A stretch of DNA of 63,652 nucleotides, filler included, from a bacterium (GCA_024278215.1; 5 parts of 5 records of this genome joined end to end with filler, not necessarily neighbours in it); one strand, 5' to 3'; numbered from the whole stretch's first letter, positions 1 through 13,147 are shown. Notes: a model not told the origin generated them from the sequence alone. Made by a program: numbers and translations.

Positions 1-192
1 AATGTCATAATTTGTTGATCCCCAGTTGGTATAATAGAAGTATAATGTTGGTTTTTGTAAATGATGTATTTGAATTGGATGCGGAAAGTCGACTGTAGCA
101 CCTGGAACATTAAGCAGGTCACTTGTAGTTTGAAAGGTTTTGAATACTTCAATGTTACTTAATCCGTCAGATAAGATTTCCTGATCTGCCAT
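1..192 (-). CDS. Partial ORF (MADQEILSDGLSNIEVF...), putative virion protein, runs off the window
   Basis: ATG at 192-190 overlaps the upstream stop (TAATG); frame is open to position 1. Confidence 0.6.
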   Translation of the reverse strand, partial: MADQEILSDGLSNIEVFKTFQTTSDLLNVPGATVDFPHPIQIHHLQKPTLYFYYTNWGSTNYDI

Positions 193-653
193 TAGCCTAT
201 AAACCTCCAGGTTATTTTCAATTCTCCGGAAATATTATTTAAAGCAGTTAAATCTCTATTGAGTAGCTGAATCCGGACAACATTCGATGTCGCATGATGA
301 CTGAATTTATGAATTCCCTGGTGCTCGAGGTAGAGTCTTCGAGTTAAAATGCTGGGAGTTGTCGTTAGCTCTTTTTCAAAAACTTTAATTTCCAGTTTCG
401 ACGGATTCGCCGCGGGATGTTCCCATCGGATAAGAAAGTCGAAAATCTTGCTGTGTACGGCGTGCAGGTTGACGTTGCCGGCCGGCGCGACGCTCGGCAT
501 GTCCTTCGGAGTCGGCATATCGCGTGCGACTTCCGTGAAACAATCTTTTATGAGAATATAATTCCCAGGCGTGATGACAAAAGTATCGTCATAGATCGTG
601 TATATGCGCTCTGTGGCTTTCGTGTACTGATTCGGAAGGTTATAGAATGGCAT
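192..653 (-). CDS. Hypothetical beta-rich protein, putative minor virion/vertex protein
   Basis: 153 aa; TAATG coupling at both ends; alternating hydrophobic strands (FDFLIRWEH, VRIQLLN, GELKITWRF). Confidence 0.55.
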   Translation of the reverse strand: MPFYNLPNQYTKATERIYTIYDDTFVITPGNYILIKDCFTEVARDMPTPKDMPSVAPAGNVNLHAVHSKIFDFLIRWEHPAANPSKLEIKVFEKELTTTPSILTRRLYLEHQGIHKFSHHATSNVVRIQLLNRDLTALNNISGELKITWRFIG

Positions 654-1246
654 TATTTCTGCATCCTTTCGTCCATCGGGAACATATCGAAAACGAGCCA
701 GCCGGAGGCCGATGCGACGATCTTACCGGAGTCCCAGCCGTCCGCCAGGCGGCGGATATACATTCCGAATTTCTGGTTTTCGTTAATGACAAGCCGGATT
801 TTCAGTTTGCATCCACAAGGCGGATTCTGCGGCACCTCGATAGCGGTTTGATCTCCAAATTGACGCCCGTCGACCATGAAGACCGCAACACAAATGCCTG
901 GCATGAACATATTCGACCAGACAATCTTCGCGTCGTCGATTATAAGCTTGCGCCCCTTCGGGACTGTATATTCGAGTACAGTTACATAGCCGCCTGTGTT
1001 CGTGTCGAATTCATAGAGATTGCAGGTGGAAGTATTCGCCGTAAAAGTCAAAGGTAGCGCAGACTCCGGCTGAAAAGCGACGTCCGGAAGTCGCTTAACG
1101 GTGACTCCGCCCTGGATCTGCCGCGCTATGGGAGTCCCGAGCGTGTCGCGTTCCAGAACATTTTGTTCGGCAGGCATCGCAAGGCCGCGCCGGCCGCCGC
1201 CGATCTGGCTCGGCACATATCCCTTTTGTCCAGGGTAACCCCTCAT
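653..1246 (-). CDS. Putative jelly-roll minor capsid/penton-like protein
   Basis: Gly/Arg-rich N-terminal arm followed by a beta-sandwich-like pattern (VLEYTVPKGRKLII...LVINENQKFGMYI...SASGWL). Confidence 0.5.
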   Translation of the reverse strand: MRGYPGQKGYVPSQIGGGRRGLAMPAEQNVLERDTLGTPIARQIQGGVTVKRLPDVAFQPESALPLTFTANTSTCNLYEFDTNTGGYVTVLEYTVPKGRKLIIDDAKIVWSNMFMPGICVAVFMVDGRQFGDQTAIEVPQNPPCGCKLKIRLVINENQKFGMYIRRLADGWDSGKIVASASGWLVFDMFPMDERMQK

Positions 1247-1248
1247 TT

Positions 1249-2061
1249 TCAGACTCCTATCAGGTTCGCGCCGATAAGCGCAAGTTCGCCGGCGTTAAAT
1301 GCGACTGCCGGGTCGTTATATGCGGTGATCGTGATATTGCCATTCGCCCGGAACGGCCGTGTTATCGGCAGCACTCCGGGAAGCTTCCCCGTGCCGCATA
1401 TCGTGCGAGTATCGACCGGCGTATTAAAAAGCGTTTTGCCGGAACTGCTGTCCTCGATCTGTATCTTCCACGGCCACACACGATCATGATTCATATTCAG
1501 GTAGTAGAGCTCGAACGGCTTATCGTTTAGTATCTCGATGGTGTCGGTGATGATCTGCCCGGGAAGAGAAAACGCAATGTCGACATTGTAGGCCGTAAAC
1601 TCCGCCCTCACGTCGTTACGCGCCAGGCTGTTACGTGTATACTCGCCGAGACTCGCCGGTGGCTGCGCCGCCGCGCCGCTCCGGAGCGTCGCGCCCACCA
1701 GATAGATACTTCCGGCGTTCGCCGCAATGAGTCCGTTTCGCGCGTCGATGCGTATAGTCCTGTTACCCGCGAATATGCGGGAGACGGGAAGTATCATAGG
1801 ATACTGGCCGTCGCCCAGCAAATTCACGGATGAACAGAAGTCGCGGAAGACATATTCGTTCGAGGAAGTATCCATAATGTTGAAAACGAATTCGTTCGGG
1901 TGCGAGGATACCAGGTAGTACAACTCGAAGTCTCCACCGCTGAGCAGCACTTTCGAGGCGCTGAGCGATTCGCTTGCCGCCGTAAAATCAAGCGGAAATT
2001 CGTACACATAATAATCTGCCGGGACTGTAACCCTCGGCTGAAGTCTATTCGTAGGTAACAT
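1249..2061 (-). CDS. Putative capsid protein with two tandem homologous beta-rich (jelly-roll-like) domains
   Basis: Internal duplication: FELYYL twice; LGDGQYPMILPVSRIF / CGTGKLPGVLPITRPF; NAGSIYLVGATL / NAGELALIGANL; GAGGAG RBS. Confidence 0.6.
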   Translation of the reverse strand: MLPTNRLQPRVTVPADYYVYEFPLDFTAASESLSASKVLLSGGDFELYYLVSSHPNEFVFNIMDTSSNEYVFRDFCSSVNLLGDGQYPMILPVSRIFAGNRTIRIDARNGLIAANAGSIYLVGATLRSGAAAQPPASLGEYTRNSLARNDVRAEFTAYNVDIAFSLPGQIITDTIEILNDKPFELYYLNMNHDRVWPWKIQIEDSSSGKTLFNTPVDTRTICGTGKLPGVLPITRPFRANGNITITAYNDPAVAFNAGELALIGANLIGV

Positions 2062-2106
2062 AATGAATACTCCTCTTTATTTGTCGTTATTGCTCGTTAT
2101 TACTCG

Positions 2107-2721
2107 TTACTGGACAGGCCGTTGCAGGAATCCGCCGAGCACGCACATAACCTGCTGCGTGGCTGCCAGATTCACGGGTGCGTTTGTGAACCTGATCGAC
2201 ACGTTGAATGCTTGATTCGGCTGAAGTACGATCGGTTTTGTGAGCTTGAATATACCCGAGGGATTCCGGCTACCATTCTGACCATAGATTTTCTCGAACG
2301 CGGCCGCGCTCGCATCCGCCGCGGCAAAGAACTGTGCGCCGAAACCGCTCGAAAGCAGCTTCACGGGTATTTCCAGATAGGTCTTGTCGCCAATGGTCAG
2401 CACAAGCCAGGTCTCATAGCGGAGCGCCGCGAGTATCTCGTCGGGGTCGTCTGCGAATTTCCCGAATTCGTCGTTGATGCCGACCTGTATTGAATGAATG
2501 CTGAAGCTGTTGCCGGCCGGGAGATTCCCGCCCTGGTCCATGTTCGTATGGCCCTTAGTTTTCTTCGTGCCGCTTATCGGGAGCGGCTGTCCGAATTTCT
2601 GCGTGAAAAAATCCATCTCGACCGTCGTCGCGTCCATCTCGGACGTATCGTATAGCGGCTGCTGGATTATCTGTCCGACGCCTGTCAGACCTGTAGCCTG
2701 GGCGAAGTTTTTAGTTTCCAT
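2107..2721 (-). CDS. Putative major capsid protein, single jelly-roll type
   Basis: 204 aa; QPLYDT..FF..TNM..GGNLPAGNSFSIHSI..PIVLQPNQAFNVSI..LGGFLQRPVQ beta pattern; AAGGAG RBS; position in the operon. Confidence 0.6.
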   Translation of the reverse strand: METKNFAQATGLTGVGQIIQQPLYDTSEMDATTVEMDFFTQKFGQPLPISGTKKTKGHTNMDQGGNLPAGNSFSIHSIQVGINDEFGKFADDPDEILAALRYETWLVLTIGDKTYLEIPVKLLSSGFGAQFFAAADASAAAFEKIYGQNGSRNPSGIFKLTKPIVLQPNQAFNVSIRFTNAPVNLAATQQVMCVLGGFLQRPVQ

Positions 2722-2763
2722 TTTTCAATCTCTCCTTTTTCGTTTTTTTCTTGATTCTTATGT

Positions 2764-3375
2764 TTATAGATAGCTGTTGTTTGCGAGATAGGATGCAGCG
2801 GGAAGTGATACATACTCGCCGAGTCCCGCGCCGGCGCCGCTCATCTCTGGCAGCATCCGGATATACTCGCCGACTTCGCCGTCGAGATACAGATCGTCCG
2901 CCAGGAACGTATCCGCATACTTCTTGCCAGTCGCCGTGTCAAATAGAGTTATGCCGCCCGAAAGCAAGCCACCGACCACAAGACCGTCGCACAACTGCTG
3001 ATTCTTCTTCTTGCGCCCCAGGAAATTTTCTCCCAGGATGCCGGCCGCTATGCCGGCAATCATCTGCACGCCGCCACGCACATAGCCCGACTGCGATTTC
3101 AGAAACGTATTCACCAGGGCGCGCGCTCCCATGAAGCCGGCCATAACGGCGAGGACCTCCGGCATCAGATATGCCAGGCGTTTCGTCATCGAGGACGGTC
3201 TCGGGTTTCTCCGGACCTTCCGCTTCGTCGCCTTCTTTTTGTATATCTTTTTTGCCGGGTTCCGCTTCGTCTTTTTCTTGGCTGTTTTCTTCTTTTTAGC
3301 CATGCTTGACCCCTTTCTTTTGGTTTTCTTCCTCCCTGCGGTTTTTCTCGGATTCATGATTAGTACACTGTGCAT
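2764..3375 (-). CDS. Lys-rich N-terminus (MNP/KRNP/RRNP) plus hydrophobic helices; putative DNA-binding internal membrane protein
   Basis: Highly basic first ~65 aa, about three Gly/Ala-rich hydrophobic segments, acidic GEY-containing tail. Confidence 0.6.
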   Translation of the reverse strand: MHSVLIMNPRKTAGRKKTKRKGSSMAKKKKTAKKKTKRNPAKKIYKKKATKRKVRRNPRPSSMTKRLAYLMPEVLAVMAGFMGARALVNTFLKSQSGYVRGGVQMIAGIAAGILGENFLGRKKKNQQLCDGLVVGGLLSGGITLFDTATGKKYADTFLADDLYLDGEVGEYIRMLPEMSGAGAGLGEYVSLPAASYLANNSYL

Positions 3376-3377
3376 CT

Positions 3378-3812
3378 TTATCCCTCGATTCCTCGCTCGG
3401 TGATCGTATAATCGCCGCCGATGATGTATAGTCTATTTCCTCGACTGTCGCTGCACAGCAGCGGTTTTGCCTTGTGAAAAACATGCCTGTAAGTCTCTTT
3501 CCCGCGGCGGCCCTTAGCCGCCTTATACTCGACAGCGTGCAGCTCGCCCAGGGACACCAGCACCTTCGGGACACCAGGCACTCGCGCCTTGATAACTTCC
3601 TTCGCGTCGCGCCCCCAGGAGAAGTCTTTGTAAAACGAGTCCGCCCGCCTGAGTTCACGCTCGATGGTCACCCGGGTCGATGTGTTTTTCCGGCTTGGGT
3701 TCTTCTTCTTCGCTTTTTTCGCCGTCGATTTGAGCGCCGGTTTCCGCTTCACGGCATTCTTTCTTGCGACAACTTTTCTTTTTTTCTTCTTTGCGACTTT
3801 TTTCTTCGCCAT
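3378..3812 (-). CDS. Lys-rich putative virion core protein
   Basis: MAKKKVAKKKKRK..KKNP arm, then a globular C-domain (YRHVF..KPLL..LYIIGGDYTITERGIEG); GAGGT RBS. Confidence 0.65.
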   Translation of the reverse strand: MAKKKVAKKKKRKVVARKNAVKRKPALKSTAKKAKKKNPSRKNTSTRVTIERELRRADSFYKDFSWGRDAKEVIKARVPGVPKVLVSLGELHAVEYKAAKGRRGKETYRHVFHKAKPLLCSDSRGNRLYIIGGDYTITERGIEG

Positions 3813-3819
3813 ATATAAT
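3791..3819 (+). promoter_or_regulatory. Sigma70 promoter driving the antisense cassette
   Basis: TTGCGA (3791-3796), 17-nt spacer, TATAAT (3814-3819). Confidence 0.65.
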
Positions 3820-3856
3820 TACCTCAAATTTCAATATTCAGAAAGGACATAAAACT

Positions 3857-4189
3857 ATGAATCAAACACCGCCTTTAGTTCTCGAAATGCAAAATATGAA
3901 GAAATCATTGAAAAGTATTCGTAACTGGATGATCGTTTTATGTTTTTTAGGTATGACATCCATAACACTCTTTTCTGCTGGAAATGCCTATTACATGAAA
4001 TATAAGTTTTCACAGCAACGAAAAGTGATAGAATTACAATCGGAGCAAATAAAGCAAATACAATATCAACAGCTTGCCTATATGAGAAGAAATGAAGAGT
4101 TGAGAAGGCAGATTGCAGAATCACAAAAACAACAAGATACGGCGAAAACAATCGCTGACATAGCAAAGATAATTTTAACATTATTTTGA
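3857..4189 (+). CDS. Small TM plus coiled-coil protein (moron gene 1)
   Basis: AAGGA RBS; TM segment (WMIVLCFLGMTSITLF); Gln-rich helix; AT-rich. Confidence 0.6.
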   Translation: MNQTPPLVLEMQNMKKSLKSIRNWMIVLCFLGMTSITLFSAGNAYYMKYKFSQQRKVIELQSEQIKQIQYQQLAYMRRNEELRRQIAESQKQQDTAKTIADIAKIILTLF

Positions 4190-4200
4190 GGAGCGATACC

Positions 4201-4374
4201 ATGAAAAAAGGACTCTTGACTCCTGAAGAACTGCACCAGAAGATCAGAGACACAAACAGGGTTGTGAATATAATGTTTTGGATTAATTTCATAATGTTTT
4301 TAAGTCTTTCTGTTTCCATATTTATTCTTTATAATTCAATAATTGATACGATCATGAGACTTTACGCTCAATAA
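4201..4374 (+). CDS. Small single-TM protein (moron gene 2)
   Basis: GAGGAG RBS; hydrophobic IMFWINFIMFLSLSVSIFILY. Confidence 0.6.
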   Translation: MKKGLLTPEELHQKIRDTNRVVNIMFWINFIMFLSLSVSIFILYNSIIDTIMRLYAQ

Positions 4375-4948
4375 GAACCATAGCGCTTAAAGCTGTAACT
4401 CCTCCAACAATCCAAGGTAGATTTTTTGTTATAAATACTTTGGAATTTGTTACAGATAGTAATTCTTCCGTTTTTCTTTTTGCCAGATATGCCTTTGCAA
4501 GATATGTCGTTGGAATTGCGATTATGGCCGCTATGGCAAGTCCTATAACTATCGGAGCAACCCCCAAATTAAGATCGTCAATTGTTTCGTCAGGCACGCC
4601 CGCCACCTTGAAATATGGCCATAGCAGTATTCGCAATCGGTTGTAAGCCTTTTCCGACTCGTGGAGCCTGGCGGCGAACTGCGCCTTCTCCGGGTCATCG
4701 TCCCGCATATAGGTAAGGTTGCGGCGAATCTGAAGGATGTCTCGCTTCATGCTATCGAGCATGTTCAGCATGTTATATGTTCGCACCTGAACCATCTCCC
4801 GGCCATGTCCCTGCTCCACCTGGTGGATGATCTCCACGAGATTATCTTTAACATCCTCGACCGTGCCGGTCGCTCGATGCCACCAGTCTTTTATCGTGTC
4901 CCAGGTTGAGGGTATTGTGTTTGACGCAACGAGAGTCATTTCTTCCAC
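4352..4948 (-). CDS. Putative virion membrane protein
   Basis: Helical N-domain and two hydrophobic segments (LGVAPIVIGLAIAAIIA; LPWIVGGVTALSAMVL). Confidence 0.6.
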   Translation of the reverse strand: MEEMTLVASNTIPSTWDTIKDWWHRATGTVEDVKDNLVEIIHQVEQGHGREMVQVRTYNMLNMLDSMKRDILQIRRNLTYMRDDDPEKAQFAARLHESEKAYNRLRILLWPYFKVAGVPDETIDDLNLGVAPIVIGLAIAAIIAIPTTYLAKAYLAKRKTEELLSVTNSKVFITKNLPWIVGGVTALSAMVLIERKVS

Positions 4949-5445
4949 CTGTCCACAAGAGTGAATGCGAGCACAGAGCCGGCCGCCGCCGCGCCATAAG
5001 CGATATACTTTTTCGGCACCCGCACATTCAGCAGCGGGATTGTCACGTTATCCTCATCCCCTGGCAAAGTAAAAGTTCCCGTCGCGCCGCCTGAAGGATG
5101 CACCGGCGCCGGCGCCGACGGTTTCGGATTGTACACCGGCACACTCGCTCCAGCTTCTTTTTTGCGGAGCCGATCCTGGTACCCGAGCAGCTTGCCGCTC
5201 AGCCCGTTTTTCTGCGCCTGCGTCAGCGCATACCAGTATCTCGACTTGATCGCGTTGTAATACTGCTCAAGATAGTAGTTGTCTGTCCGAGTCGGATTGT
5301 TTACCGATCTATAAAAAACAATATTGAATTTATCAATAAGCCTCTGTATCGCATCCGCCTGCGCTTCAGCCGTCGGCGGCCCGTAATAATTCGTCGCCGA
5401 CCTGCCCACTGTCCGATCTTGTATATACGAAGCTCCGAAGTTCAT
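4936..5445 (-). CDS. C-terminally anchored putative virion membrane protein
   Basis: Pro/Thr/Gly linker, C-terminal TM, basic RWKK end; AAGGTG RBS. Confidence 0.6.
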   Translation of the reverse strand: MNFGASYIQDRTVGRSATNYYGPPTAEAQADAIQRLIDKFNIVFYRSVNNPTRTDNYYLEQYYNAIKSRYWYALTQAQKNGLSGKLLGYQDRLRKKEAGASVPVYNPKPSAPAPVHPSGGATGTFTLPGDEDNVTIPLLNVRVPKKYIAYGAAAAGSVLAFTLVDRWKK

Positions 5446-5460
5446 TATTTCACCTTCCCA

Positions 5461-6213
5461 CTATATTTTTTTGTTGACAACCAGATACAACAGATATACC
5501 CCGACCGCCACAGCCATGTATGGGTAGAACTGTCTAAACACCTTAGGCTGAGTCGCATCATATTCGATGACTGTAGGCTCCGATCGCTGGAGCGGCGGCT
5601 GTGAAGGCCCGACTGGGATAGGATGCTCCGAATGTACAGTTTTAGAAACGTAAGGATCAGTAGGAGAAGGAGGACCTTCAGGATATTGAGAATTAGCAAC
5701 TCTGATGCGCCAGACCTGCCAGGCTGCCTGTATTCTGGATATTTCGGCGGCCGAAAGATGTTTCTTGTTTCTCATCAGAAACGCATGTACCGTTGCTATC
5801 GACTTTAAGGTATTGTCTGATATTGCTGCCTTTTGAACATTCGACAGGAAAGAAACATATATCGGAAGAACTGTATATTTTCTCACAGCATCATTTTTCA
5901 TAGTGTCATCCTCTGTTGAAGTCTTTATTCCTGAAGCGGCCGGTGGAAGCTGCGCCGCTGCATAACGCGCCTTATATGTCCTCCAGGCTTTAAAAAAGCG
6001 AGTCTGAGCTGGAGTTAGTGGCATCTTGTAGATCGTTTTATAGTGCCCACTATGTTTCTTCTTCTCGAAAAAGTCATACATCATCTGATAAGTTTTTGCG
6101 TCGAGCGGTCCGCTATCAGCTATTTTTATAAAGTTCTCTACCTCCGGACATATTTTCGCCTCTCTCGCCCAGTAAGCGGCATCAGCAACGATCTTTTTGT
6201 GTTTTTGCCCCAT
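5461..6213 (-). CDS. C-terminally anchored putative virion membrane protein
   Basis: Pro-rich linker, C-terminal TM (YPYMAVAVGVYLLYLVV), NKKI end. Confidence 0.6.
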   Translation of the reverse strand: MGQKHKKIVADAAYWAREAKICPEVENFIKIADSGPLDAKTYQMMYDFFEKKKHSGHYKTIYKMPLTPAQTRFFKAWRTYKARYAAAQLPPAASGIKTSTEDDTMKNDAVRKYTVLPIYVSFLSNVQKAAISDNTLKSIATVHAFLMRNKKHLSAAEISRIQAAWQVWRIRVANSQYPEGPPSPTDPYVSKTVHSEHPIPVGPSQPPLQRSEPTVIEYDATQPKVFRQFYPYMAVAVGVYLLYLVVNKKI

Positions 6214-6214
6214 A

Positions 6215-7132
6215 TCACTTACCGTTCATCCACAGGTATACCAGCAGCCCTCCGACGCCGACATAGATCACATAATCCTTCGGGATTTCGTTTCCCAGAA
6301 TATTTATAGTTTCTTTAGGCTTCGTCTCCGGCGCGGCCGCGCCCGCCGCGCGCCCGTCGCCAGGCACAGTAACATTCACCGTCGTAGTCGTTGAGGATGT
6401 CGCCGGCGTGCCCGTCGTGCCCGTTCCAGTCGTTTCGGTCGTTTCGGTCGTTCCCGTTGTTCCCGTTGTTCCCGTGCCCGTCGTTCCCGTGCCCTCATAT
6501 AAATTTATTACATGCTCGTATAGCTCCTGACTGATTTCTTTTCTCGCGAGCATATCATTGAGATACATCTTCCAGTCCGCACTACCGGCCTCATGAAGTT
6601 TTTTGATGAATGCCAGTTTTAATGTTTTATTAGTTATTGACGCCCATTTTTCGTCATTTGTCATCTGTGTAGTTCCTGTACTTGTCGTTGTAGTGCCGTC
6701 TCCACCATATGACTGTATTATCTGATCATATTTTTCGTCGCTTATTTGATTTGTGTTTTTTAAAATATCAAGTAATGACCGCCAATCTTTATTAGCGTGA
6801 TGATATTTCATTATTAATAATAATTTTTTAGATAAAGGTGGCTCCGGCTGATTCATATAAAAAACATCACTGTCATGACTCCATTTAGCGAAATTAGATT
6901 CAATACGTGAAATTTGTTCCGGAGTTGCAAGAGATTTTAAATTTTTATATTTTTTATACTGCTCGGGGAGATTTTGCCGCTTTTTCTGTTGATCGTAGTA
7001 ACTTTCAGTTTCCCAGTTTGTATAATTTGCAGCAGCATTAAGCTGTGCATCAATAATGCGGAGAAGTTTTTTGTCAGACTCTACGTCCCCGAAGTCGAGT
7101 ACAGCATCTCTGACATTGTCTAAAAAATTCAT
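6215..7132 (-). CDS. C-terminally anchored protein with a duplicated helical domain and Thr/Gly linker
   Basis: KLLLIMKYH..DW..IS..Y / KLAFIKKLH..DW..IS..Y repeat; TGTT low-complexity tract; C-terminal TM. Confidence 0.65.
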   Translation of the reverse strand: MNFLDNVRDAVLDFGDVESDKKLLRIIDAQLNAAANYTNWETESYYDQQKKRQNLPEQYKKYKNLKSLATPEQISRIESNFAKWSHDSDVFYMNQPEPPLSKKLLLIMKYHHANKDWRSLLDILKNTNQISDEKYDQIIQSYGGDGTTTTSTGTTQMTNDEKWASITNKTLKLAFIKKLHEAGSADWKMYLNDMLARKEISQELYEHVINLYEGTGTTGTGTTGTTGTTETTETTGTGTTGTPATSSTTTTVNVTVPGDGRAAGAAAPETKPKETINILGNEIPKDYVIYVGVGGLLVYLWMNGK

Positions 7133-7133
7133 G

Positions 7134-7736
7134 TCATTTCCTCATCAGAAGAATCAGCGCGAGACCGCCGGCCACCGCCCAGGGCAGATACTGTTCCAGG
7201 TCGCGCTTTGAAATATAATCGCCCTGCGGCTGTCGCGGCCACTCGATATTACCCGGGTCGATCTCCACCGGCTGCCCCTGCGTATAATCGCCCCACACCG
7301 TCCTATCGACAAGCTGCCGCATCGTCGCATCAATCATATCCTGCGTCGGAATAACACCCGTCGCCTGAAGCGACGTCCGCACCAGCCGTTGCAAGTCAGT
7401 CCATTTTTTGCCTTTTATCAATTTTGTCGCCGTCCCTCCGATTTTTGAGGCTATACCCGTAATTGATGATTGAACACCGTCACCCAGAGCACCCACAGCG
7501 CCGAGTCCGATCAGATACGGAAGCCCCTTCAGCGGTTTGTGTAGTATTTTGTGGAAGCCTTTTTTTAGTTTTCGTGCTATTTTTTTGAAAAAACCCGACA
7601 TATTCCCATCATCCAAATAATCGGAATAAGCCCAGGCTTTCATATCAACGACTTGACCGTCCGGAAGCTGAATATCATAAAGACCACTACTCGCCAGAAT
7701 CTCAAGATCATCTTCAGTAAGATTTTTTTTAATCAT
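7134..7736 (-). CDS. Membrane protein with a cationic amphipathic helix
   Basis: MSGFFKKIARKLKKGFHKILHK segment; C-terminal TM (LPWAVAGGLALILL); start placed at ATG 7736, overlapping the upstream stop. Confidence 0.6.
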   Translation of the reverse strand: MIKKNLTEDDLEILASSGLYDIQLPDGQVVDMKAWAYSDYLDDGNMSGFFKKIARKLKKGFHKILHKPLKGLPYLIGLGAVGALGDGVQSSITGIASKIGGTATKLIKGKKWTDLQRLVRTSLQATGVIPTQDMIDATMRQLVDRTVWGDYTQGQPVEIDPGNIEWPRQPQGDYISKRDLEQYLPWAVAGGLALILLMRK

Positions 7737-8223
7737 AAAGGAAAAACCGCCGTTCGATATATTTTTCAGGACCTTCGCCAAAATCGACATCTCTAATAGG
7801 GTCCATATCGTAAAAGTCGCGTCCTATAAGAGCCTGAGAATATATGTGATTCCAGACACCTCGCCGTTTTTGGGCTATAACAACGAACCTTGTTTTAATT
7901 CCGACCGATTCAAGTAATGCATTTAGCAATATCACTTGATCATCACAATCGCCGCTTCTAAACTGAATTGTCTGAATCGGAGTTTGCAGAGTCTCAACCC
8001 CTGCAATATCTTTACGGTATTTGATAGTATCACGGACCCAGTTGAATATAGTTTGAGTTTCAGCCATCGCGTCACGTTCGGGAGCCGTCATAATAATTGA
8101 AAGAGCTATCTGTCGTATTTTTGGATTAATCTTAAAATCTTTGACCATCTCCGCCATAGCATTAATAGTGAAAAGAAATTTCTCCATATAATTAGAAAAA
8201 TTATACTTAATCGCTTCGATCAT
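7729..8223 (-). CDS. Transglutaminase-like (Cys-His-Asp) protein, putative protease or cross-linker
   Basis: TLQTP..T....GDCDD...L..LL.SVG...RF......HIY......DMDP motif. Confidence 0.85.
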   Translation of the reverse strand: MIEAIKYNFSNYMEKFLFTINAMAEMVKDFKINPKIRQIALSIIMTAPERDAMAETQTIFNWVRDTIKYRKDIAGVETLQTPIQTIQFRSGDCDDQVILLNALLESVGIKTRFVVIAQKRRGVWNHIYSQALIGRDFYDMDPIRDVDFGEGPEKYIERRFFLYD

Positions 8224-8311
8224 TTATTTTTGTCTCCGTGGCGAGGACGGCGGACTTTTGGATTTCCGCCGCCCCCTGATTCAGGTAAAACACCACAGGG
8301 AAAAAGTCATT

Positions 8312-8342
8312 TAAAAAGCCCGCGGGACTCACGCCCCGCGGT
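8312..8342 (-). terminator. Intrinsic terminator-like hairpin upstream of the structural operon
   Basis: Minus strand: CCGCGGG stem, loop, CCCGCGG, followed by GCTTTTT. Confidence 0.5.
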
Positions 8343-8354
8343 TGAAACGGGTTG

Positions 8355-8966
8355 CTATCGGTTGCAATTTTCAACTCCATTATTCGCATTTATTTCTTTC
8401 AATATCTTTTCCTCCTCGATCAATTCGAGGAGCGTCTGACGACTCGAAAAGATAAGGTCTTTCGTTTTAATCGAAAGTTCGATGTCGAGATAGTGAATCT
8501 CTCCACATCGCGAACATACCACCCTTGCCGCGCCGCCTGTCAGCGAGACCGTCCCCGTAAGCTCGATGCGATTTCCGCAGCAGATACAATTCACAACGAG
8601 ATTCTCGATCTCAACAGTCAGCATTTTTCCGTTTTGCCCCTTTACTCTTTTTTCCTGTGACACATTCGAATATTTTTTCAGAAACAATTTACTGTCTTCC
8701 CGAACGATCAAAGGGAAAACGCATTCCTTATCAAACGGATTCTTGTTTCGACGCGGCCGCCCCGATCTATCTCTATGCGGCTGAGCATGATGACACGAGA
8801 AAGAAGAACAACTCCCGTAAATAGTCTCGTGACCATAAGGACAAACACGATCGTGATTGCAAGGTTGACGTACCAAGCAATCTTTAACGTGCCCGTCGTC
8901 CCCTAATTCAGATTTTTTAGGTTTTCTCTCCTTCGCAGCAAAAATAAATTCCTTAGCAATAGCCAT
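8355..8966 (-). CDS. Cys/His-rich zinc-ribbon protein, putative regulator
   Basis: CICC...CSRC pair plus an N-terminal Cys/His cluster; GGGGG RBS before ATG 8966. Confidence 0.55.
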   Translation of the reverse strand: MAIAKEFIFAAKERKPKKSELGDDGHVKDCLVRQPCNHDRVCPYGHETIYGSCSSFSCHHAQPHRDRSGRPRRNKNPFDKECVFPLIVREDSKLFLKKYSNVSQEKRVKGQNGKMLTVEIENLVVNCICCGNRIELTGTVSLTGGAARVVCSRCGEIHYLDIELSIKTKDLIFSSRQTLLELIEEEKILKEINANNGVENCNR

Positions 8967-9178
8967 AAGCAACCCCCGAATAAGATTGATAATTGAGAAG
9001 GAATTATAATTTAGTATTGTGGAAATTTGGGCAACGGACCAACAAACATATCCCTAATCAGCAACATTAATTAGTCGTGATACAGGAACATATATTATGC
9101 TACGTTGTATAGGTTTTGTTAAGTTTGACGTATTATCTTTACACTTCTTGTGATTCATGGAAGTTTTGTATTCAAGTC

Positions 9179-10990
9179 TTATCGTATATACTCGATACCC
9201 AGCGCACGTAGTCGTTTTCTCGCGAGGTCGGCGCCGTGACTGTAGAGATCGGTTTTGATGGCGTCTTTATACCATTTTATACCGCTGTCGCGGTCATGCA
9301 ATCTATTTTTATAGATGTCACCGATGTGGACGTAGCTCATAGTGTTGTCGGGTTTTATGGCGATGGATTTTTTGTAATAGATTATGGCATTTTCGTAGTC
9401 GCCGATTTCTTCGTAAACTTTCGCGACGAGGTCCTGCTGTTCGAAGTCGTCGGGCTGGAGGTCGGCGGTTATCTTAAAATGTTCGAGTGCATTGGCTTTC
9501 TTGCCGAGTTGATAGTAGATGTCGCCGATTTTATATTGCAGCGCTATGTCGTTTTTATTCGATGGGATCAGCTCGTTTGCTTCCTTATAGAGCCTGAGCG
9601 CGGTTTTTAGTTTACCCGTTGCATAGTTCTGGTTACCGATAAGAATAAGAGAAACTGAAAGTTTTTCTTTATATTTCGAGTTTCCCGGCTTGAGTTTCAG
9701 GTATTTTCGATACTCTTCGGCAGCTTTCCAGTAGTTTTTACCTTTAAAATACATTTCGCCGAGGTCGCGGTGGGTTTCAGGTATTCCAGGCTGTTCTTTG
9801 GTGATTTTCTGATATAGCGGCATTGCTTTTTTTACTCTGCCGGTCTGCCAGTAGATGCGTGCGAGTCCGACTTCGCATGTGGAGTGCGGAGCGGGCAGCG
9901 CTACACATGCTTCGAGTTTTTTCTCAGCCTGCCCTACCCTGTTCACGCGCAGCAACATTGCAGCCTGGAAGTTGTACCACGCTGCGGGCGAAACGCGCGG
10001 GAATAAAAAGAGGAATCCCGGCACAACGAGCAGCAAAGCGGCGATTGCGGCATATACAGGCGTGAGCCTGAACCCCTGCCGGTCCGCCACGGGCGCATAA
10101 GCCATGCTCGACCACAGGATAATTACTCCACTGAGGAAGGGGAACAGCATACCCGCGCCCAGAACTTTTATCAGGGAACGCAGCGCTGACATTTTCTGCT
10201 TACTAACGGGTGGCGCGGTGTTTTTGCTCGCTGCCGGCTCCGGGGGTGTGATCCTGAAAATGTTTATTTCCGGCATAAGCGCAGTTCGTTCCTGCACATA
10301 AGTCTCATATCCGGGGCCGAGTTCGATCATTGCGTTTACAAAGCGAAACCCCATAAGCAACGCCCCGATGCTTATCACAACGGAAAAGAAAGCAAGCAGT
10401 TGCAGCAGAAAAACTCCGATGCCGCGTTGCGAAAGCGCGAAAAAGAAGCTGAACGCAAACACTGCGCTCAGAACGATTCCGGTGGACAACTGCGGCAACA
10501 AGTCGAGTTTGTCAGCGAAAATAAAAATGAAAGGAATAGAGAAAACTTCTACACTTCTGCCGCTCTCGAAGCTGAACCAGGGCAGTACGAGCCCCGGAAC
10601 AAGCAGCACGACACCGGCAAACAGCCGGAAACCGGGAGTTCTAAGCAATGTGGTTACACGATTTCGACCGGCACGCTTCGGCTTTTTGAGTTTTTCATCA
10701 TTCGAGAATTTCGGAGTTTCCGCCTGCTGTGATTTATCCTGATCGGAAGCATCATGAGGCGCGCTCCCGGCTATTTTCGTTATATCCGTTGCTTTATCCG
10801 CAATCTTTTTTTGCGACGTTTTATTGACTGTCGGCTGACGCGCCTGTCGTTTCTGAGCAGGCTTACCGCCCTGCCCTGCTGTCGAATCTCCGGCGGACTT
10901 CTGCTTGTCCTTATTAAGAGCGCTTCCGCAGTTCAAACATATATCGACACCGTCAGGAACATCATTGCCGCAATTGTAACAGTAAGCCAT
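9179..10990 (-). CDS. Zinc-ribbon / multi-TM / TPR-repeat membrane protein
   Basis: CYNC..CLNC, about five TM segments, multiple TPRs (LGEMYFKGKNYWKAAEEYRKYLKLKP). Confidence 0.85.
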   Translation of the reverse strand: MAYCYNCGNDVPDGVDICLNCGSALNKDKQKSAGDSTAGQGGKPAQKRQARQPTVNKTSQKKIADKATDITKIAGSAPHDASDQDKSQQAETPKFSNDEKLKKPKRAGRNRVTTLLRTPGFRLFAGVVLLVPGLVLPWFSFESGRSVEVFSIPFIFIFADKLDLLPQLSTGIVLSAVFAFSFFFALSQRGIGVFLLQLLAFFSVVISIGALLMGFRFVNAMIELGPGYETYVQERTALMPEINIFRITPPEPAASKNTAPPVSKQKMSALRSLIKVLGAGMLFPFLSGVIILWSSMAYAPVADRQGFRLTPVYAAIAALLLVVPGFLFLFPRVSPAAWYNFQAAMLLRVNRVGQAEKKLEACVALPAPHSTCEVGLARIYWQTGRVKKAMPLYQKITKEQPGIPETHRDLGEMYFKGKNYWKAAEEYRKYLKLKPGNSKYKEKLSVSLILIGNQNYATGKLKTALRLYKEANELIPSNKNDIALQYKIGDIYYQLGKKANALEHFKITADLQPDDFEQQDLVAKVYEEIGDYENAIIYYKKSIAIKPDNTMSYVHIGDIYKNRLHDRDSGIKWYKDAIKTDLYSHGADLARKRLRALGIEYIR

Positions 10991-11026
10991 CCGTCTCACC
11001 GTTTTTCCAGATTGGTTTCATAAGAA

Positions 11027-11166
11027 GAGCCAATTGCAAAATTCTGATTCTGCTGCGGTCGGCTGCTATTGTCCATAGCTGCGTTGTCGGCATAAAATCG
11101 TCCTCGACGTACTCTACAAGTACGCCTGCGAGGATTTTGCACCTCCGCCTTGCTCTGAACAATTTC
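11027..11166. mobile_element. MITE family A copy, truncated by the contig end
   Basis: Starts GAGCCAATTGCAAAATT; near-identical reverse complement of 13147-13324. Confidence 0.85.
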
Positions 11167-11266
11167 NNNNNNNNNNNNNNNNNNNNNNNNNNNNNNNNNN
11201 NNNNNNNNNNTTAATTAATTAANNNNNNNNNNNNNNNNNNNNNNNNNNNNNNNNNNNNNNNNNNNN
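11167..11266. other. Artificial contig spacer
   Basis: N-run, TTAATTAATTAA, N-run (100 nt). Confidence 0.98.
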
Positions 11267-12240
11267 AAAACCGGTGACGTAATGACGGGCGACCTCGAAG
11301 TGGATTCCGACATAATTGCATCGGGCAATATCACAGCGGCGACGGGAACGATTACAGCGGCGAGTTTCTCCGGCGACGGCAGCGCACTCACGGGTATCAG
11401 TTCGACAGACAATACGAAAGTGCTGAAAACCGGTGACGTAATGACGGGCGATCTGAATGTCGGCGCGAATGTGCTTGTAGCAGGTGACATAACGGCGGCG
11501 ACGGGAACGATGACAGCGGCGAGTTTCTCCGGCGACGGTTCAGCTTTAACAGGGATAGTTGTATCAGGTTCTGTTGCGAAAACCGGCGACGCGATGACAG
11601 GCGATCTGAATGTCGGCGCGAATGTGCTTGTAGCAGGTGACATAACGGCGGCGACGGGAACGATTTCGGCGGCGAGTTTCTCCGGCGACGGCAGCGCGCT
11701 CACGGGGATCAGTTCGACAGACAATACGAAAGTACTGAAAACCGGTGACGTAATGACGGGCGACCTCGAAGTGAATTCCGACATAATTGCATCGGGCAAT
11801 ATCACGGCGGCGACGGGAACGATCTCGGCGAATGCTTTCTCCGGCGACGGCAGCGCACTCACGGGCATCAGTTCGACAGACAATACGAAAGTACTGAAAA
11901 CCGGCGATGTAATGACGGGCGACCTCGAAGTGAATTCCGACATAATTGCATCAGGCAATATTACAGCGGCGACAGGAACGATTACGGCGAATGCTTTCTC
12001 CGGCGACGGCAGCGCACTCACGGGCATCAGTTCGACAGACAATACGAAAGTGCTGAAAACCGGAGACGTAATGACGGGCGACCTCGAAGTGAATTCCGAC
12101 ATAATTGCATCGGGCAATATCACGGCGGCGACAGGAACGATTACGGCGTCGAGTTTCTCCGGCGACGGCAGCGCGTTAACAGGGATAACCGCAACAGACA
12201 ACACAAAGGTGGCGATAGCAGGCGACACAATGACAGGGTC
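11267..12240 (+). repeat. About six intragenic tandem repeats of 153-159 bp
   Basis: AAAACCGG(T/C/A)GA recurs at about 11267, 11426, 11579, 11738, 11897 and 12056. Confidence 0.9.
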
Positions 12241-13147
12241 GCTGACGATAGGCTCACAGGGGCCGCAGACAGGTTATGACGTGACCTTTTACGGAACATT
12301 GGACAGCGGCAAAAGCATGATGTTCTGGGATGCCTCCAGAGACGCGTTCAGAGCAGGCTTTGACAGCACCACTGTATGGGACGACGCGGATGTAGGCAAC
12401 TATTCATTCGCCACGGGGCACACAACAAAAGCGAACGGGGCGGAATCCTTTGCCACAGGCTACCTTACGACTGCAAGCGGCATTGCGTCCGCCGCTTTCG
12501 GGAGAGAAACGAATGTCGCATCGGCCTTCACGTTCGCTGCGGGAAGAAGTGTGACAATTCAGGCTTCCAGCGATCATTCCGCAGGTTTCGGTTATAATAA
12601 TGATATTAGTGGATTGTCCTCATTTGTTGCAGGAGAGTACAGCAACATAAATGGTGATTATTCAATAGCGCTCGGCAGATATATAACTGCAAACAACACC
12701 GGCACTTTCGTCATAGGAAGAGGAATCGACGCTTTTAACAAGCTGGCAAACCCGGTAACAAATTCATTGATGATAGGATTCAACAGCGATGAAGCCACCC
12801 TGTATGTAGGTCCGGCAAGCGGCGCGGTCGGCTCGTACGGGAATGTGGGGATCGGCACGAGCAGCCCGTCTTCCAGGCTCGAAGTCAATGGTAGTTTCGA
12901 ACTGTCGGACCCGGAAGTCGCAGGCCAGAGCACTATAGCAAGCGGCAGCGCATGCAAGACCGTTTCGAGCTCGATAATAACAGCTTCCAGCGCTGTTATC
13001 GTCACCCCGTACACGACCTCGACGACGAGCGCGGAAGCGACATTGAAAGTGAAAACGATAACGGCGAGCGCAAGCTTTGAGGTCTGCACAGTGGACGAAA
13101 GTGTTGTATCCACAAACATAGGTTTCTCTTATGTAGTTATAAATTAG
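11267..13147 (+). CDS. Repeat-rich adhesin/fibre-like surface protein, 5' truncated
   Basis: 53-aa KTGDVMTGDL...GDGSALTGI repeats; YadA-head-like SFATG/SAAFG repeats; GNVGIGTSSP motif. Confidence 0.75.
   Translation, partial: KTGDVMTGDLEVDSDIIASGNITAATGTITAASFSGDGSALTGISSTDNTKVLKTGDVMTGDLNVGANVLVAGDITAATGTMTAASFSGDGSALTGIVVSGSVAKTGDAMTGDLNVGANVLVAGDITAATGTISAASFSGDGSALTGISSTDNTKVLKTGDVMTGDLEVNSDIIASGNITAATGTISANAFSGDGSALTGISSTDNTKVLKTGDVMTGDLEVNSDIIASGNITAATGTITANAFSGDGSALTGISSTDNTKVLKTGDVMTGDLEVNSDIIASGNITAATGTITASSFSGDGSALTGITATDNTKVAIAGDTMTGSLTIGSQGPQTGYDVTFYGTLDSGKSMMFWDASRDAFRAGFDSTTVWDDADVGNYSFATGHTTKANGAESFATGYLTTASGIASAAFGRETNVASAFTFAAGRSVTIQASSDHSAGFGYNNDISGLSSFVAGEYSNINGDYSIALGRYITANNTGTFVIGRGIDAFNKLANPVTNSLMIGFNSDEATLYVGPASGAVGSYGNVGIGTSSPSSRLEVNGSFELSDPEVAGQSTIASGSACKTVSSSIITASSAVIVTPYTTSTTSAEATLKVKTITASASFEVCTVDESVVSTNIGFSYVVIN

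Follow-up and report, generated by a model that had tools for sequence, protein, structure and literature searches.

A transglutaminase-fold cysteine enzyme heading the membrane-protein block of an uncultivated small phage, with a duplicated jelly-roll protein in the same module

The window analysed here is a stretch of 63,652 nucleotides, filler included, in which contigs of a bacterial metagenome-assembled genome (MAG; GCA_024278215.1) were joined with runs of N between them. Positions 1 to ~8972 of the window make up the structural module of a small uncultivated phage that contains a membrane; its contig was binned together with the bacterial MAG, and close to the upstream end of this module lies p164, a transglutaminase-fold Cys-His-Asp enzyme. 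Both the enzyme and the viral, virion-linked setting in which it stands are real and conserved. On the best-supported reading, which draws on analogy with LapG and to which I assign a probability of roughly 0.4, p164 may be a cysteine protease of the transglutaminase fold that acts at the viral membrane surface. An earlier annotation of positions 1,249 to 8,223 made from sequence (the original prediction) had instead proposed an adenovirus-like maturation protease that cleaves neighbouring proteins after Gly at recurrent short motifs.

The intact GDCDD/H/D triad named in the original prediction was borne out, and p164 was confirmed at the level of sequence as a transglutaminase-fold protein with its Cys, His and Asp/Glu in that order. 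It matched the Pfam family PF01841 (Transglut_core; E-value 3.3e-11, 43.9 bits against a cut-off of 23) and also PF04473, and carries GDCDD from residue 91, WNHIY from 124 and YDMDP from 138. A total of 113 homologues of similar size were found, and in the 55 of them that were aligned, C93 and H126 were invariant (55/55), residue 141 was either Asp (26 homologues) or Glu (29), and the residues flanking the cysteine, D92, D94 and D95, were invariant too. The likeness to the adenovirus enzyme was not upheld: a Pfam scan at E-values up to 0.1 returned transglutaminase-type families only for p164 and no match to the adenain fold family, NlpC/P60, CHAP or amidases, and the triad runs Cys, then His, then Asp. 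When a profile of the p164 family was compared with solved structures, it matched 3isr (E 2.8e-5) and, second-best, LapG (4u65, E 1.1e-4), the alignment placing the GDCDD of p164 over the GDCED of LapG. LapG, a C-H-D cysteine protease, cleaves LapA between Ala108 and Ala109 and is inactive as a C135A mutant (PMC3032545), and it binds calcium near the triad (PMC4359373). A protease role is suggested for p164 because LapG is a proven protease of the transglutaminase fold.

Relatives of p164 were found on 20 viral contigs, 315 metagenome stretches (searched with a profile of a five-sequence alignment; the best 80 of the 315 were used) and 11 MAG contigs, most of them up to ~20 kb long and many of the longer ones 15-20 kb; scans of viral contigs with the single proteins p270 and p164 gave no matches. 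Judging by a database-stored homologue of p164, the family is mostly viral. Gene content was compared using the longest non-overlapping plus-strand open reading frames (ORFs) of at least 50 aa, with minus-strand and shorter ORFs left out, and the resulting 1421 ORFs fell into 509 clusters by BLAST single linkage. The enzyme formed one cluster with 85 loci, and its position was conserved throughout the virus lineage: a replication gene (a protein-primed family B polymerase or, alternatively, a P2 GpA-type rolling-circle initiator) is followed by a P/Q-rich protein with coiled coils (~390 aa), then the enzyme, membrane proteins with tail anchors, the basic proteins of clusters 9, 7 and 8, the p204 family, a ~156-aa protein akin to each half of p270, a ~150-aa protein and an endolysin-like protein. 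Counting as tail-anchored any protein with a hydrophobic segment that ends within 12 residues of the C-terminus, 96 of 134 genes at the two positions downstream of the enzyme qualified, compared to 2 of 134 at the two positions upstream and 257 of 1407 ORFs overall. A virus-internal partner is suggested because the enzyme is fixed ahead of this membrane-protein block. P0004, from the closest relative and encoded on a 13.7-kb contig, is an enzyme 57% identical to p164. The closest retrievable locus, L023, encodes the enzyme, membrane proteins, counterparts of p144, p203 and p204, a single-copy p270-like gene and a p197 homologue.

The placement of the enzyme in a virion module, which lends the original prediction partial support, agrees with the one relative from a described phage. 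SSIP-1 (Salisaeta icosahedral phage 1) is a tailless membrane-containing phage, as characterised in PMC6356626. Its gp34 (304 aa), annotated as a structural protein, was 33% identical to p164 over residues 19-153 (E 4e-17). The protein has its own C-terminal hydrophobic tail, followed by SSK, and further small tail-anchored proteins come after it; hydrophobic tails end gp34, ORF36, ORF39, gp41 and ORF42. Upstream of gp34, ORF33 is a coiled-coil, Q/P-rich protein of ~400 aa like cluster 2 of the freshwater relatives. SSIP-1 proteins other than gp34 showed no BLAST or phmmer similarity to the window or its relatives, and three candidate correspondences were not supported: a gene split or fusion linking p218 to the C-terminal half of gp34 (best E 0.68), p270 family with gp47 (hhalign probability 0.7%), and p204 family with gp46 (7%). 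The top BFVD match of p270 (TM 0.61/0.64) was I1ZBI0, a 256-aa protein that has the length of gp47 and may be that protein. By eye, gp45 and gp46 look paralogous. The enzyme domain of gp34 was also the only match among 50,697 deposited phage genomes, in which tblastn searches with p204, p144 and p270 found none, and the lineage thus appears to be without a representative there.

Positions 1-11166 are the complete contig C46 of the MAG, with the contig edge at position 1. The source genome is 95% complete and bacterial, ribosomal protein L28 having been found in it and archaeal L19e not. Every long ORF from 8972 to 1 lies on the minus strand, in the order p205, p164, p218, p305, p250, p169, p198, p144, p203, p204, p270, p197, p153 and a truncated ORF:

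8355..8972, minus strand: p205, a zinc-ribbon protein upstream of the enzyme (weak Pfam zinc-ribbon match, E 0.009)
7729..8223, minus strand: p164, the transglutaminase-fold Cys-His-Asp enzyme, 164 aa (PF01841); codons of C93 at 7945-7947, H126 at 7846-7848 and D141 at 7801-7803
7134..7790, minus strand: p218, a tail-anchored membrane protein (C-terminal hydrophobic segment 201-216, then RK)
6215..7132, minus strand: p305, a tail-anchored membrane protein with a Thr/Gly-rich linker (C-terminal hydrophobic segment 288-302)
5461..6213, minus strand: p250, a tail-anchored membrane protein (hydrophobic segment 231-247, then NKKI)
4936..5445, minus strand: p169, a membrane protein with a C-terminal hydrophobic stretch (C-terminus YIAYGAAAAGSVLAFTLVDRWKK, under the hydropathy threshold used)
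4352..4948, minus strand: p198, a membrane protein with two hydrophobic segments (125-151 and 179-194)
3764..4374, plus strand: an AT-rich island with two small opposite-strand ORFs of 141 and 62 aa, each with a hydrophobic segment
3378..3812, minus strand: p144, a basic protein with a Lys-rich N-terminal arm containing KKNP and a conserved C-terminal domain of ~100 aa
2764..3375, minus strand: p203, with a basic N-terminal arm (KRNP, RRNP), a hydrophobic middle and a C-terminal tail (VGEY168, LGEY185)
2107..2721, minus strand: p204, a predicted single jelly-roll and capsid-protein candidate (AlphaFold2 model)
1249..2061, minus strand: p270, a predicted tandem double jelly-roll with a disordered linker at residues 130-150
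653-1246, minus strand: p197, whose homologue in L023 directly follows the jelly-roll gene (33% identical, E 2e-15)
192-653, minus strand: p153, a further module gene
1-192, minus strand: a truncated ORF running off the contig end

The zinc-ribbon gene p205 is the probable upstream limit of the sequence that can be assigned to the virus; L023 has a CxxC...CPxC ORF at the equivalent position, a likeness judged by eye. The true start of p218 is likely M19 at 7736, giving 200 aa, and a 200-aa form (P0223) is in the database; its homologue P0224 is 59% identical, and L023 3656-4168 is also related. Neither p305 nor p250 had a homologue among the fetched related loci, and p169 matched L023 6809-7663 weakly (E 5e-4). 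With a GC content of 0.317 at 3813-4351, compared to 0.54 for the genes on either side, the island interrupts the minus-strand operon and resembles a moron-type insert outside the conserved module. The module is also compositionally mosaic, the p164 gene having a GC content of 0.38 and a GC content at third codon positions (GC3) of 0.35, compared to a GC3 of 0.66-0.69 for p270 and p204.

Beyond the module, 9179-10999 (minus strand) encodes a protein of 606 aa whose N-terminus carries a zinc ribbon and whose C-terminus carries TPR repeats, along with several hydrophobic segments, and contig C47 opens (11215-13147) with a 621-aa protein of highly regular ~50-aa repeats that has a mirror ORF on the opposite strand; a fibre-like ORF of L023 was unrelated to 11282-13147 (E 0.3). 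There were no tRNA genes in 1-11166 and no relatives of the virus genes on any other contig of the MAG, the small viral enzyme was found in 0 of 40 related genomes, and an NCBIfam scan of 17 proteins gave no match.

The duplicated jelly-roll is the most striking feature of the region. The predicted model of p270 (predicted local distance difference test score, pLDDT, 86; predicted TM score, pTM, 0.83) has two consecutive 8-strand jelly-roll sandwiches in one chain. In an exhaustive structural comparison this model matched DUF2961-type proteins (Z 11.8, 11.1 and 10.6), PHM (10.9) and PNGase F (8.7), as well as the STIV major capsid protein (Z 10.4, 217 residues aligned), PRD1 P3 (9.1, 229 aligned), FLiP (8.6) and PM2 P2 (8.1); the alignments span 204-229 residues, and Foldseek agreed in kind. 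The two halves (residues 9-125 and 147-267) aligned to each other with a score of 148, compared to 26.6 +/- 4.0 for shuffles. A HMMER search of 1.8 billion representatives returned 12 relatives of 245-273 aa at E-values up to 1e-30 and many single-copy ones of 120-200 aa, and most of the related viruses have a single copy of ~156 aa in place of the p270-type double. Altogether, p270 looks like a tandem duplication of a ~125-aa jelly-roll, in which a single jelly-roll has recently become a double one. No PDB sequence was matched by a profile of the single-copy domain, and weak matches between the p270 profile and A223, the penton base of STIV (E 0.1-0.2), were not reproduced and were discarded.

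For p204, which has 22 homologous ORFs in related loci, the AlphaFold2 model was of lower confidence (pLDDT 73, pTM 0.71). Its best solved match was the SPV1 capsid chain 6oj0_T (rmsd 3.8, 145 aligned; Foldseek E 2.3e-3) with a Z of 8.3, which was the sole match at Z of at least 8 and barely exceeds the 7-8 that the tool gives as its usual background. The next rows ran from 7.0 down, with HHIV-2, HCIV-1 and P23-77 VP17 at Z 6.3-6.9. On this model, p204 is a candidate for a capsid-type single jelly-roll.

Relatives encode three families of very basic proteins. In the window, 43 of the 144 residues of p144 and 40 residues of p203 are Lys or Arg; p144 has 25 homologous ORFs in related loci, and p203 has the architecture and position of cluster 8, whose members combine an arm rich in Arg or Lys with a hydrophobic middle and a tail that holds [MLIV][GSN][AEGP]Y two or three times. 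No Walker-A protein was seen in the conserved gene set of the relatives, nor did L006, L042 and part of L001, scanned against Pfam and PHROG, show a packaging ATPase. Basic proteins without a recognisable packaging ATPase fit a condensed nucleoprotein core that would be loosely adenovirus-core-like, and the best reading of the particle is a tailless, membrane-containing, double-stranded DNA phage. Profile comparisons of cluster 10 with 11 and of cluster 4 with 10 showed no similarity, and PHROG scans of the enzyme's neighbours in larger phage contigs yielded no function.

Three short sequence elements recurred in proteins of the window or its relatives well above expectation. In 16 dereplicated members of its family, the p203 tail repeat [MLIV][GSN][AEGP]Y had 30 matches compared to 1.8 expected; 15 members carry at least one copy and one carries none, and VGEY168 and LGEY185 of p203 are copies of it. 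Basic-basic-Asn-Pro occurs three times in p144 and p203 against 0.03 expected, a number reached by 0 of 5000 shuffles (regions 3202-3267, 3343-3357 and 3696-3707, with counterparts in clusters 7, 8 and 9 of L001-L102); there were 2.7 occurrences per protein in cluster 8, 1.2 in cluster 9, 0.5 in cluster 7 and almost none elsewhere. In the freshwater relatives, T[AP]AL[LF] was found in 22 of 46 dereplicated genes directly after the enzyme, compared to 1 of 1344 other ORFs. It stands at the N-terminus in the form M-x-T-[AP]-A-L-[LF]-x-x-P, often followed by PM[HNS]LG[EAD]GF, and is internal in L067, where an extension places it at residue 82, and, as judged by eye, in L100. Both basic-basic-Asn-Pro and T[AP]AL[LF] may be a recognition or cleavage element or a docking peptide, and the former may also be a DNA-binding unit.

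The sites of the original prediction were of another kind. Its enzyme would cut after Gly at NMSG-F, LDFG-D, MNFG-A, LNLG-V, LDG-E, EVG-E, EMSG-A, GLG-E and, in the capsid linker, SLG-E, and every one of the strings listed is indeed present in its place:

7581-7604, minus strand: NMSGFFKK, p218 residues 63-70
7085-7099, minus strand: LDFGD, p305 residues 12-16
5431-5445, minus strand: MNFGA, p169 residues 1-5, at the extreme N-terminus
4553-4573, minus strand: LNLGVAP, p198 residues 126-132, opening the first hydrophobic segment
p203 residues 164-171, minus strand: LDGEVGEY
p203 residues 177-188, minus strand: EMSGAGAGLGEY
1639-1653, minus strand: SLGEY, p270 residues 137-141

As a class, however, the hydrophobic-polar-hydrophobic-Gly motif was not clearly recurrent, with 3 matches against 1.0 expected (P 0.087 in 2000 residue shuffles, for a regular expression devised post hoc). 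Its generalised form, hydrophobic-small-x-aromatic, was 11x enriched in the p203 family only, with values of 0.5, 0 and 1.2x in the relatives' capsid candidates and 1.2x in their tail-anchored proteins. Adenain has a known consensus and known substrates, and its consensus ([MIL]xGxG / [MIL]xGGx) did exceed expectation in the window, at 11 matches against 4.9 (2.3x, P 0.007), including MSGAG of the p203 tail, but these matches lie mostly in hydrophobic segments or conserved folded cores such as IIGGD of p144. The domain-boundary claim held for SLGEY, which lies in the predicted disordered linker between the two jelly rolls (residues 130-150, pLDDT below 50), yet the string is deleted in P0002, the closest p270 homologue (51% identical, with 17 residues fewer in the linker), and the linker is variable across 16 aligned members, in which only one Tyr and one Arg recur; the capsid-linker site is thus dispensable. 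At the p218 site, the sequence is GVGS-WWKE in the 59% identical P0224 and NMSG-WLK in L023, so that the Gly is not kept in the former, although small residues and an aromatic pair opening a basic amphipathic stretch persist in both, which could be simply structural. MNFG comprises the first four residues of p169, and the proteins with LDFG, MNFG and LNLG had no homologue in the fetched loci apart from the weak match of p169. Hence, of the conservation expected in homologues, that of SLGEY failed, that of the p218 site was loose, and that of the p203 tail was family-wide. The basic, core-like proteins of relatives that have no recognisable packaging ATPase do suit an adenovirus-like maturation; with p164 outside the adenain fold family and a site set that is not enriched and mostly not conserved, I nevertheless regard cleavage by p164 at all of these sites as very improbable.

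Two further roles for p164 were considered, both of them without proteolytic maturation. As a true transglutaminase, it would form Gln-Lys isopeptide cross-links between virion proteins, making the particle more stable or tying membrane proteins to the shell, which suits its fold family and triad, those of transglutaminases, the annotation of gp34 as a virion protein and the Lys-rich window neighbours p144 and p203. The basic arms of relatives are Arg-rich, however, meaning that the Lys donors are not conserved; furthermore, the closest characterised sequence relative is a protease, and bacterial PF01841 members are generally predicted to be proteases. Cross-linking is quite unlikely. Somewhat less doubtful, if still unlikely, is a virion-carried entry or host-directed enzyme with no maturation role, such as a wall amidase or endopeptidase, or a deamidase or protease acting on a host protein. 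In its favour, one homologue carries a virion-associated annotation, a membrane anchor is present on the enzyme of SSIP-1 and of some larger phage contigs, as expected for delivery at the envelope, cell-wall amidases are among the papain-like folds, and wall-degrading enzymes are carried in the particles of membrane-containing phages. On the other hand, lysis enzymes distinct from p164 (lysozyme, SLT or endolysin-like) already exist in the relatives, which leaves no need for p164 as an endolysin; the absence of NlpC/P60, CHAP and amidase matches noted above and the fixed place before the membrane-protein block, with the virus-internal partner it suggests, speak against this role as well. One more idea considered was that p164 might act like a sortase on the motif-helix-basic tails.

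For the LapG-like reading, I infer protease activity, a membrane location and substrates as follows. p164 would be held at the viral membrane by neighbouring tail-anchored proteins, or by a tail of its own as in gp34, and its task, in assembly or at entry, would be to trim precursors of the membrane or core. Of the 85 enzymes, 7 have a hydrophobic segment of their own. Better substrate candidates than the Gly sites would be the p203 tail repeat and, in freshwater relatives, the T[AP]AL[LF] N-terminus next to the enzyme. Several points weigh against this. The LapG Pfam model PF06035 scores p164 at 13.6 bits, below its cut-off of 27, and a Cys-His-Asp triad also serves true transglutaminases, peptide N-glycanase and amidases. 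p164 is without a hydrophobic segment, and gene neighbourhood is its only tie to a membrane. The relatives' best candidate site cannot be carried over to the window, where p218 is without T[AP]AL[LF], and the conserved repeats could be docking or DNA-binding motifs and not cleavage sites. Finally, the ORF calls, single-linkage clusters and 4-mer dereplication are crude, and residue shuffles ignore local composition.

No prokaryotic jelly-roll or membrane-containing virus is known to use a maturation protease, and a literature search pairing transglutaminase with terms for jelly-roll or membrane-containing viruses found none mentioning transglutaminase. It is because none is known in such viruses that this enzyme is of interest as a concrete maturation-protease candidate: conserved, virion-linked and heading a membrane-protein block, it is testable, SSIP-1 being cultivable. 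A broader and more speculative proposal, which is unlikely to hold as a whole, is that of an ATPase-less, membrane-containing bacterial jelly-roll lineage with basic-basic-Asn-Pro DNA condensers, a tethered LapG-like maturation protease and a freshly duplicated double jelly-roll. Adenovirus-style maturation would then have been invented independently with a different protease fold, and the lineage would be the equivalent, in bacteria, of the jelly-roll viruses with a membrane and no ATPase that are so far known from SPV1 and FLiP-like viruses. Both SPV1 and the FLiP-like double jelly-roll viruses are described as being without a packaging ATPase (PMC8812541). The same source presents a dispute over the origin of double jelly-roll capsid proteins, which may have come from cellular proteins or from viral single jelly-rolls that were duplicated or fused. 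p270 bears on this question in that its halves can still be aligned and sister viruses keep the single-copy gene, and, if the duplication is what it looks like, it would show, as it happens, the event that has long been suggested to have given rise to double jelly-roll capsid proteins.

Among known systems, LapG and its BTLCP family (PF06035; PDB 4u65, 4fgo) share with p164 the transglutaminase fold, the C-H-D triad and, in the alignment, an acidic frame around the nucleophile, and the LapG substrate is a protein at a membrane surface, as is proposed for p164. In contrast to LapG, p164 stays below the PF06035 cut-off, has neither a signal peptide nor a LapD-type partner, stands in a viral context and is much smaller (164 aa). 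SSIP-1 resembles the window in the enzyme domain of gp34 and the small tail-anchored proteins downstream, but gp34 has its own C-terminal anchor, the genome is 43.8 kb long and a Walker-A protein, gp40, is present. Adenain offers the idea of a virion cysteine protease that trims core and membrane-lytic precursors beside basic DNA-condensing proteins, whereas p164 comes from another fold family and the sites proposed for it are not conserved. SPV1 (Portogloboviridae) and Helvetiavirae provide the closest single jelly-roll folds to the modelled p204, and SPV1, like the examined relatives of the window's virus, is without a recognisable packaging ATPase; the virus of p204 differs in its bacterial host and shows no sequence similarity to them. 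The model of p270, in turn, resembles the double jelly-rolls of the STIV, PRD1, PM2 and FLiP capsid proteins as well as the cellular DUF2961, PHM and PNGase F proteins, but, unlike known double jelly-rolls, it has halves that are still alike in sequence, is only 270 aa long and has mostly single-copy relatives.

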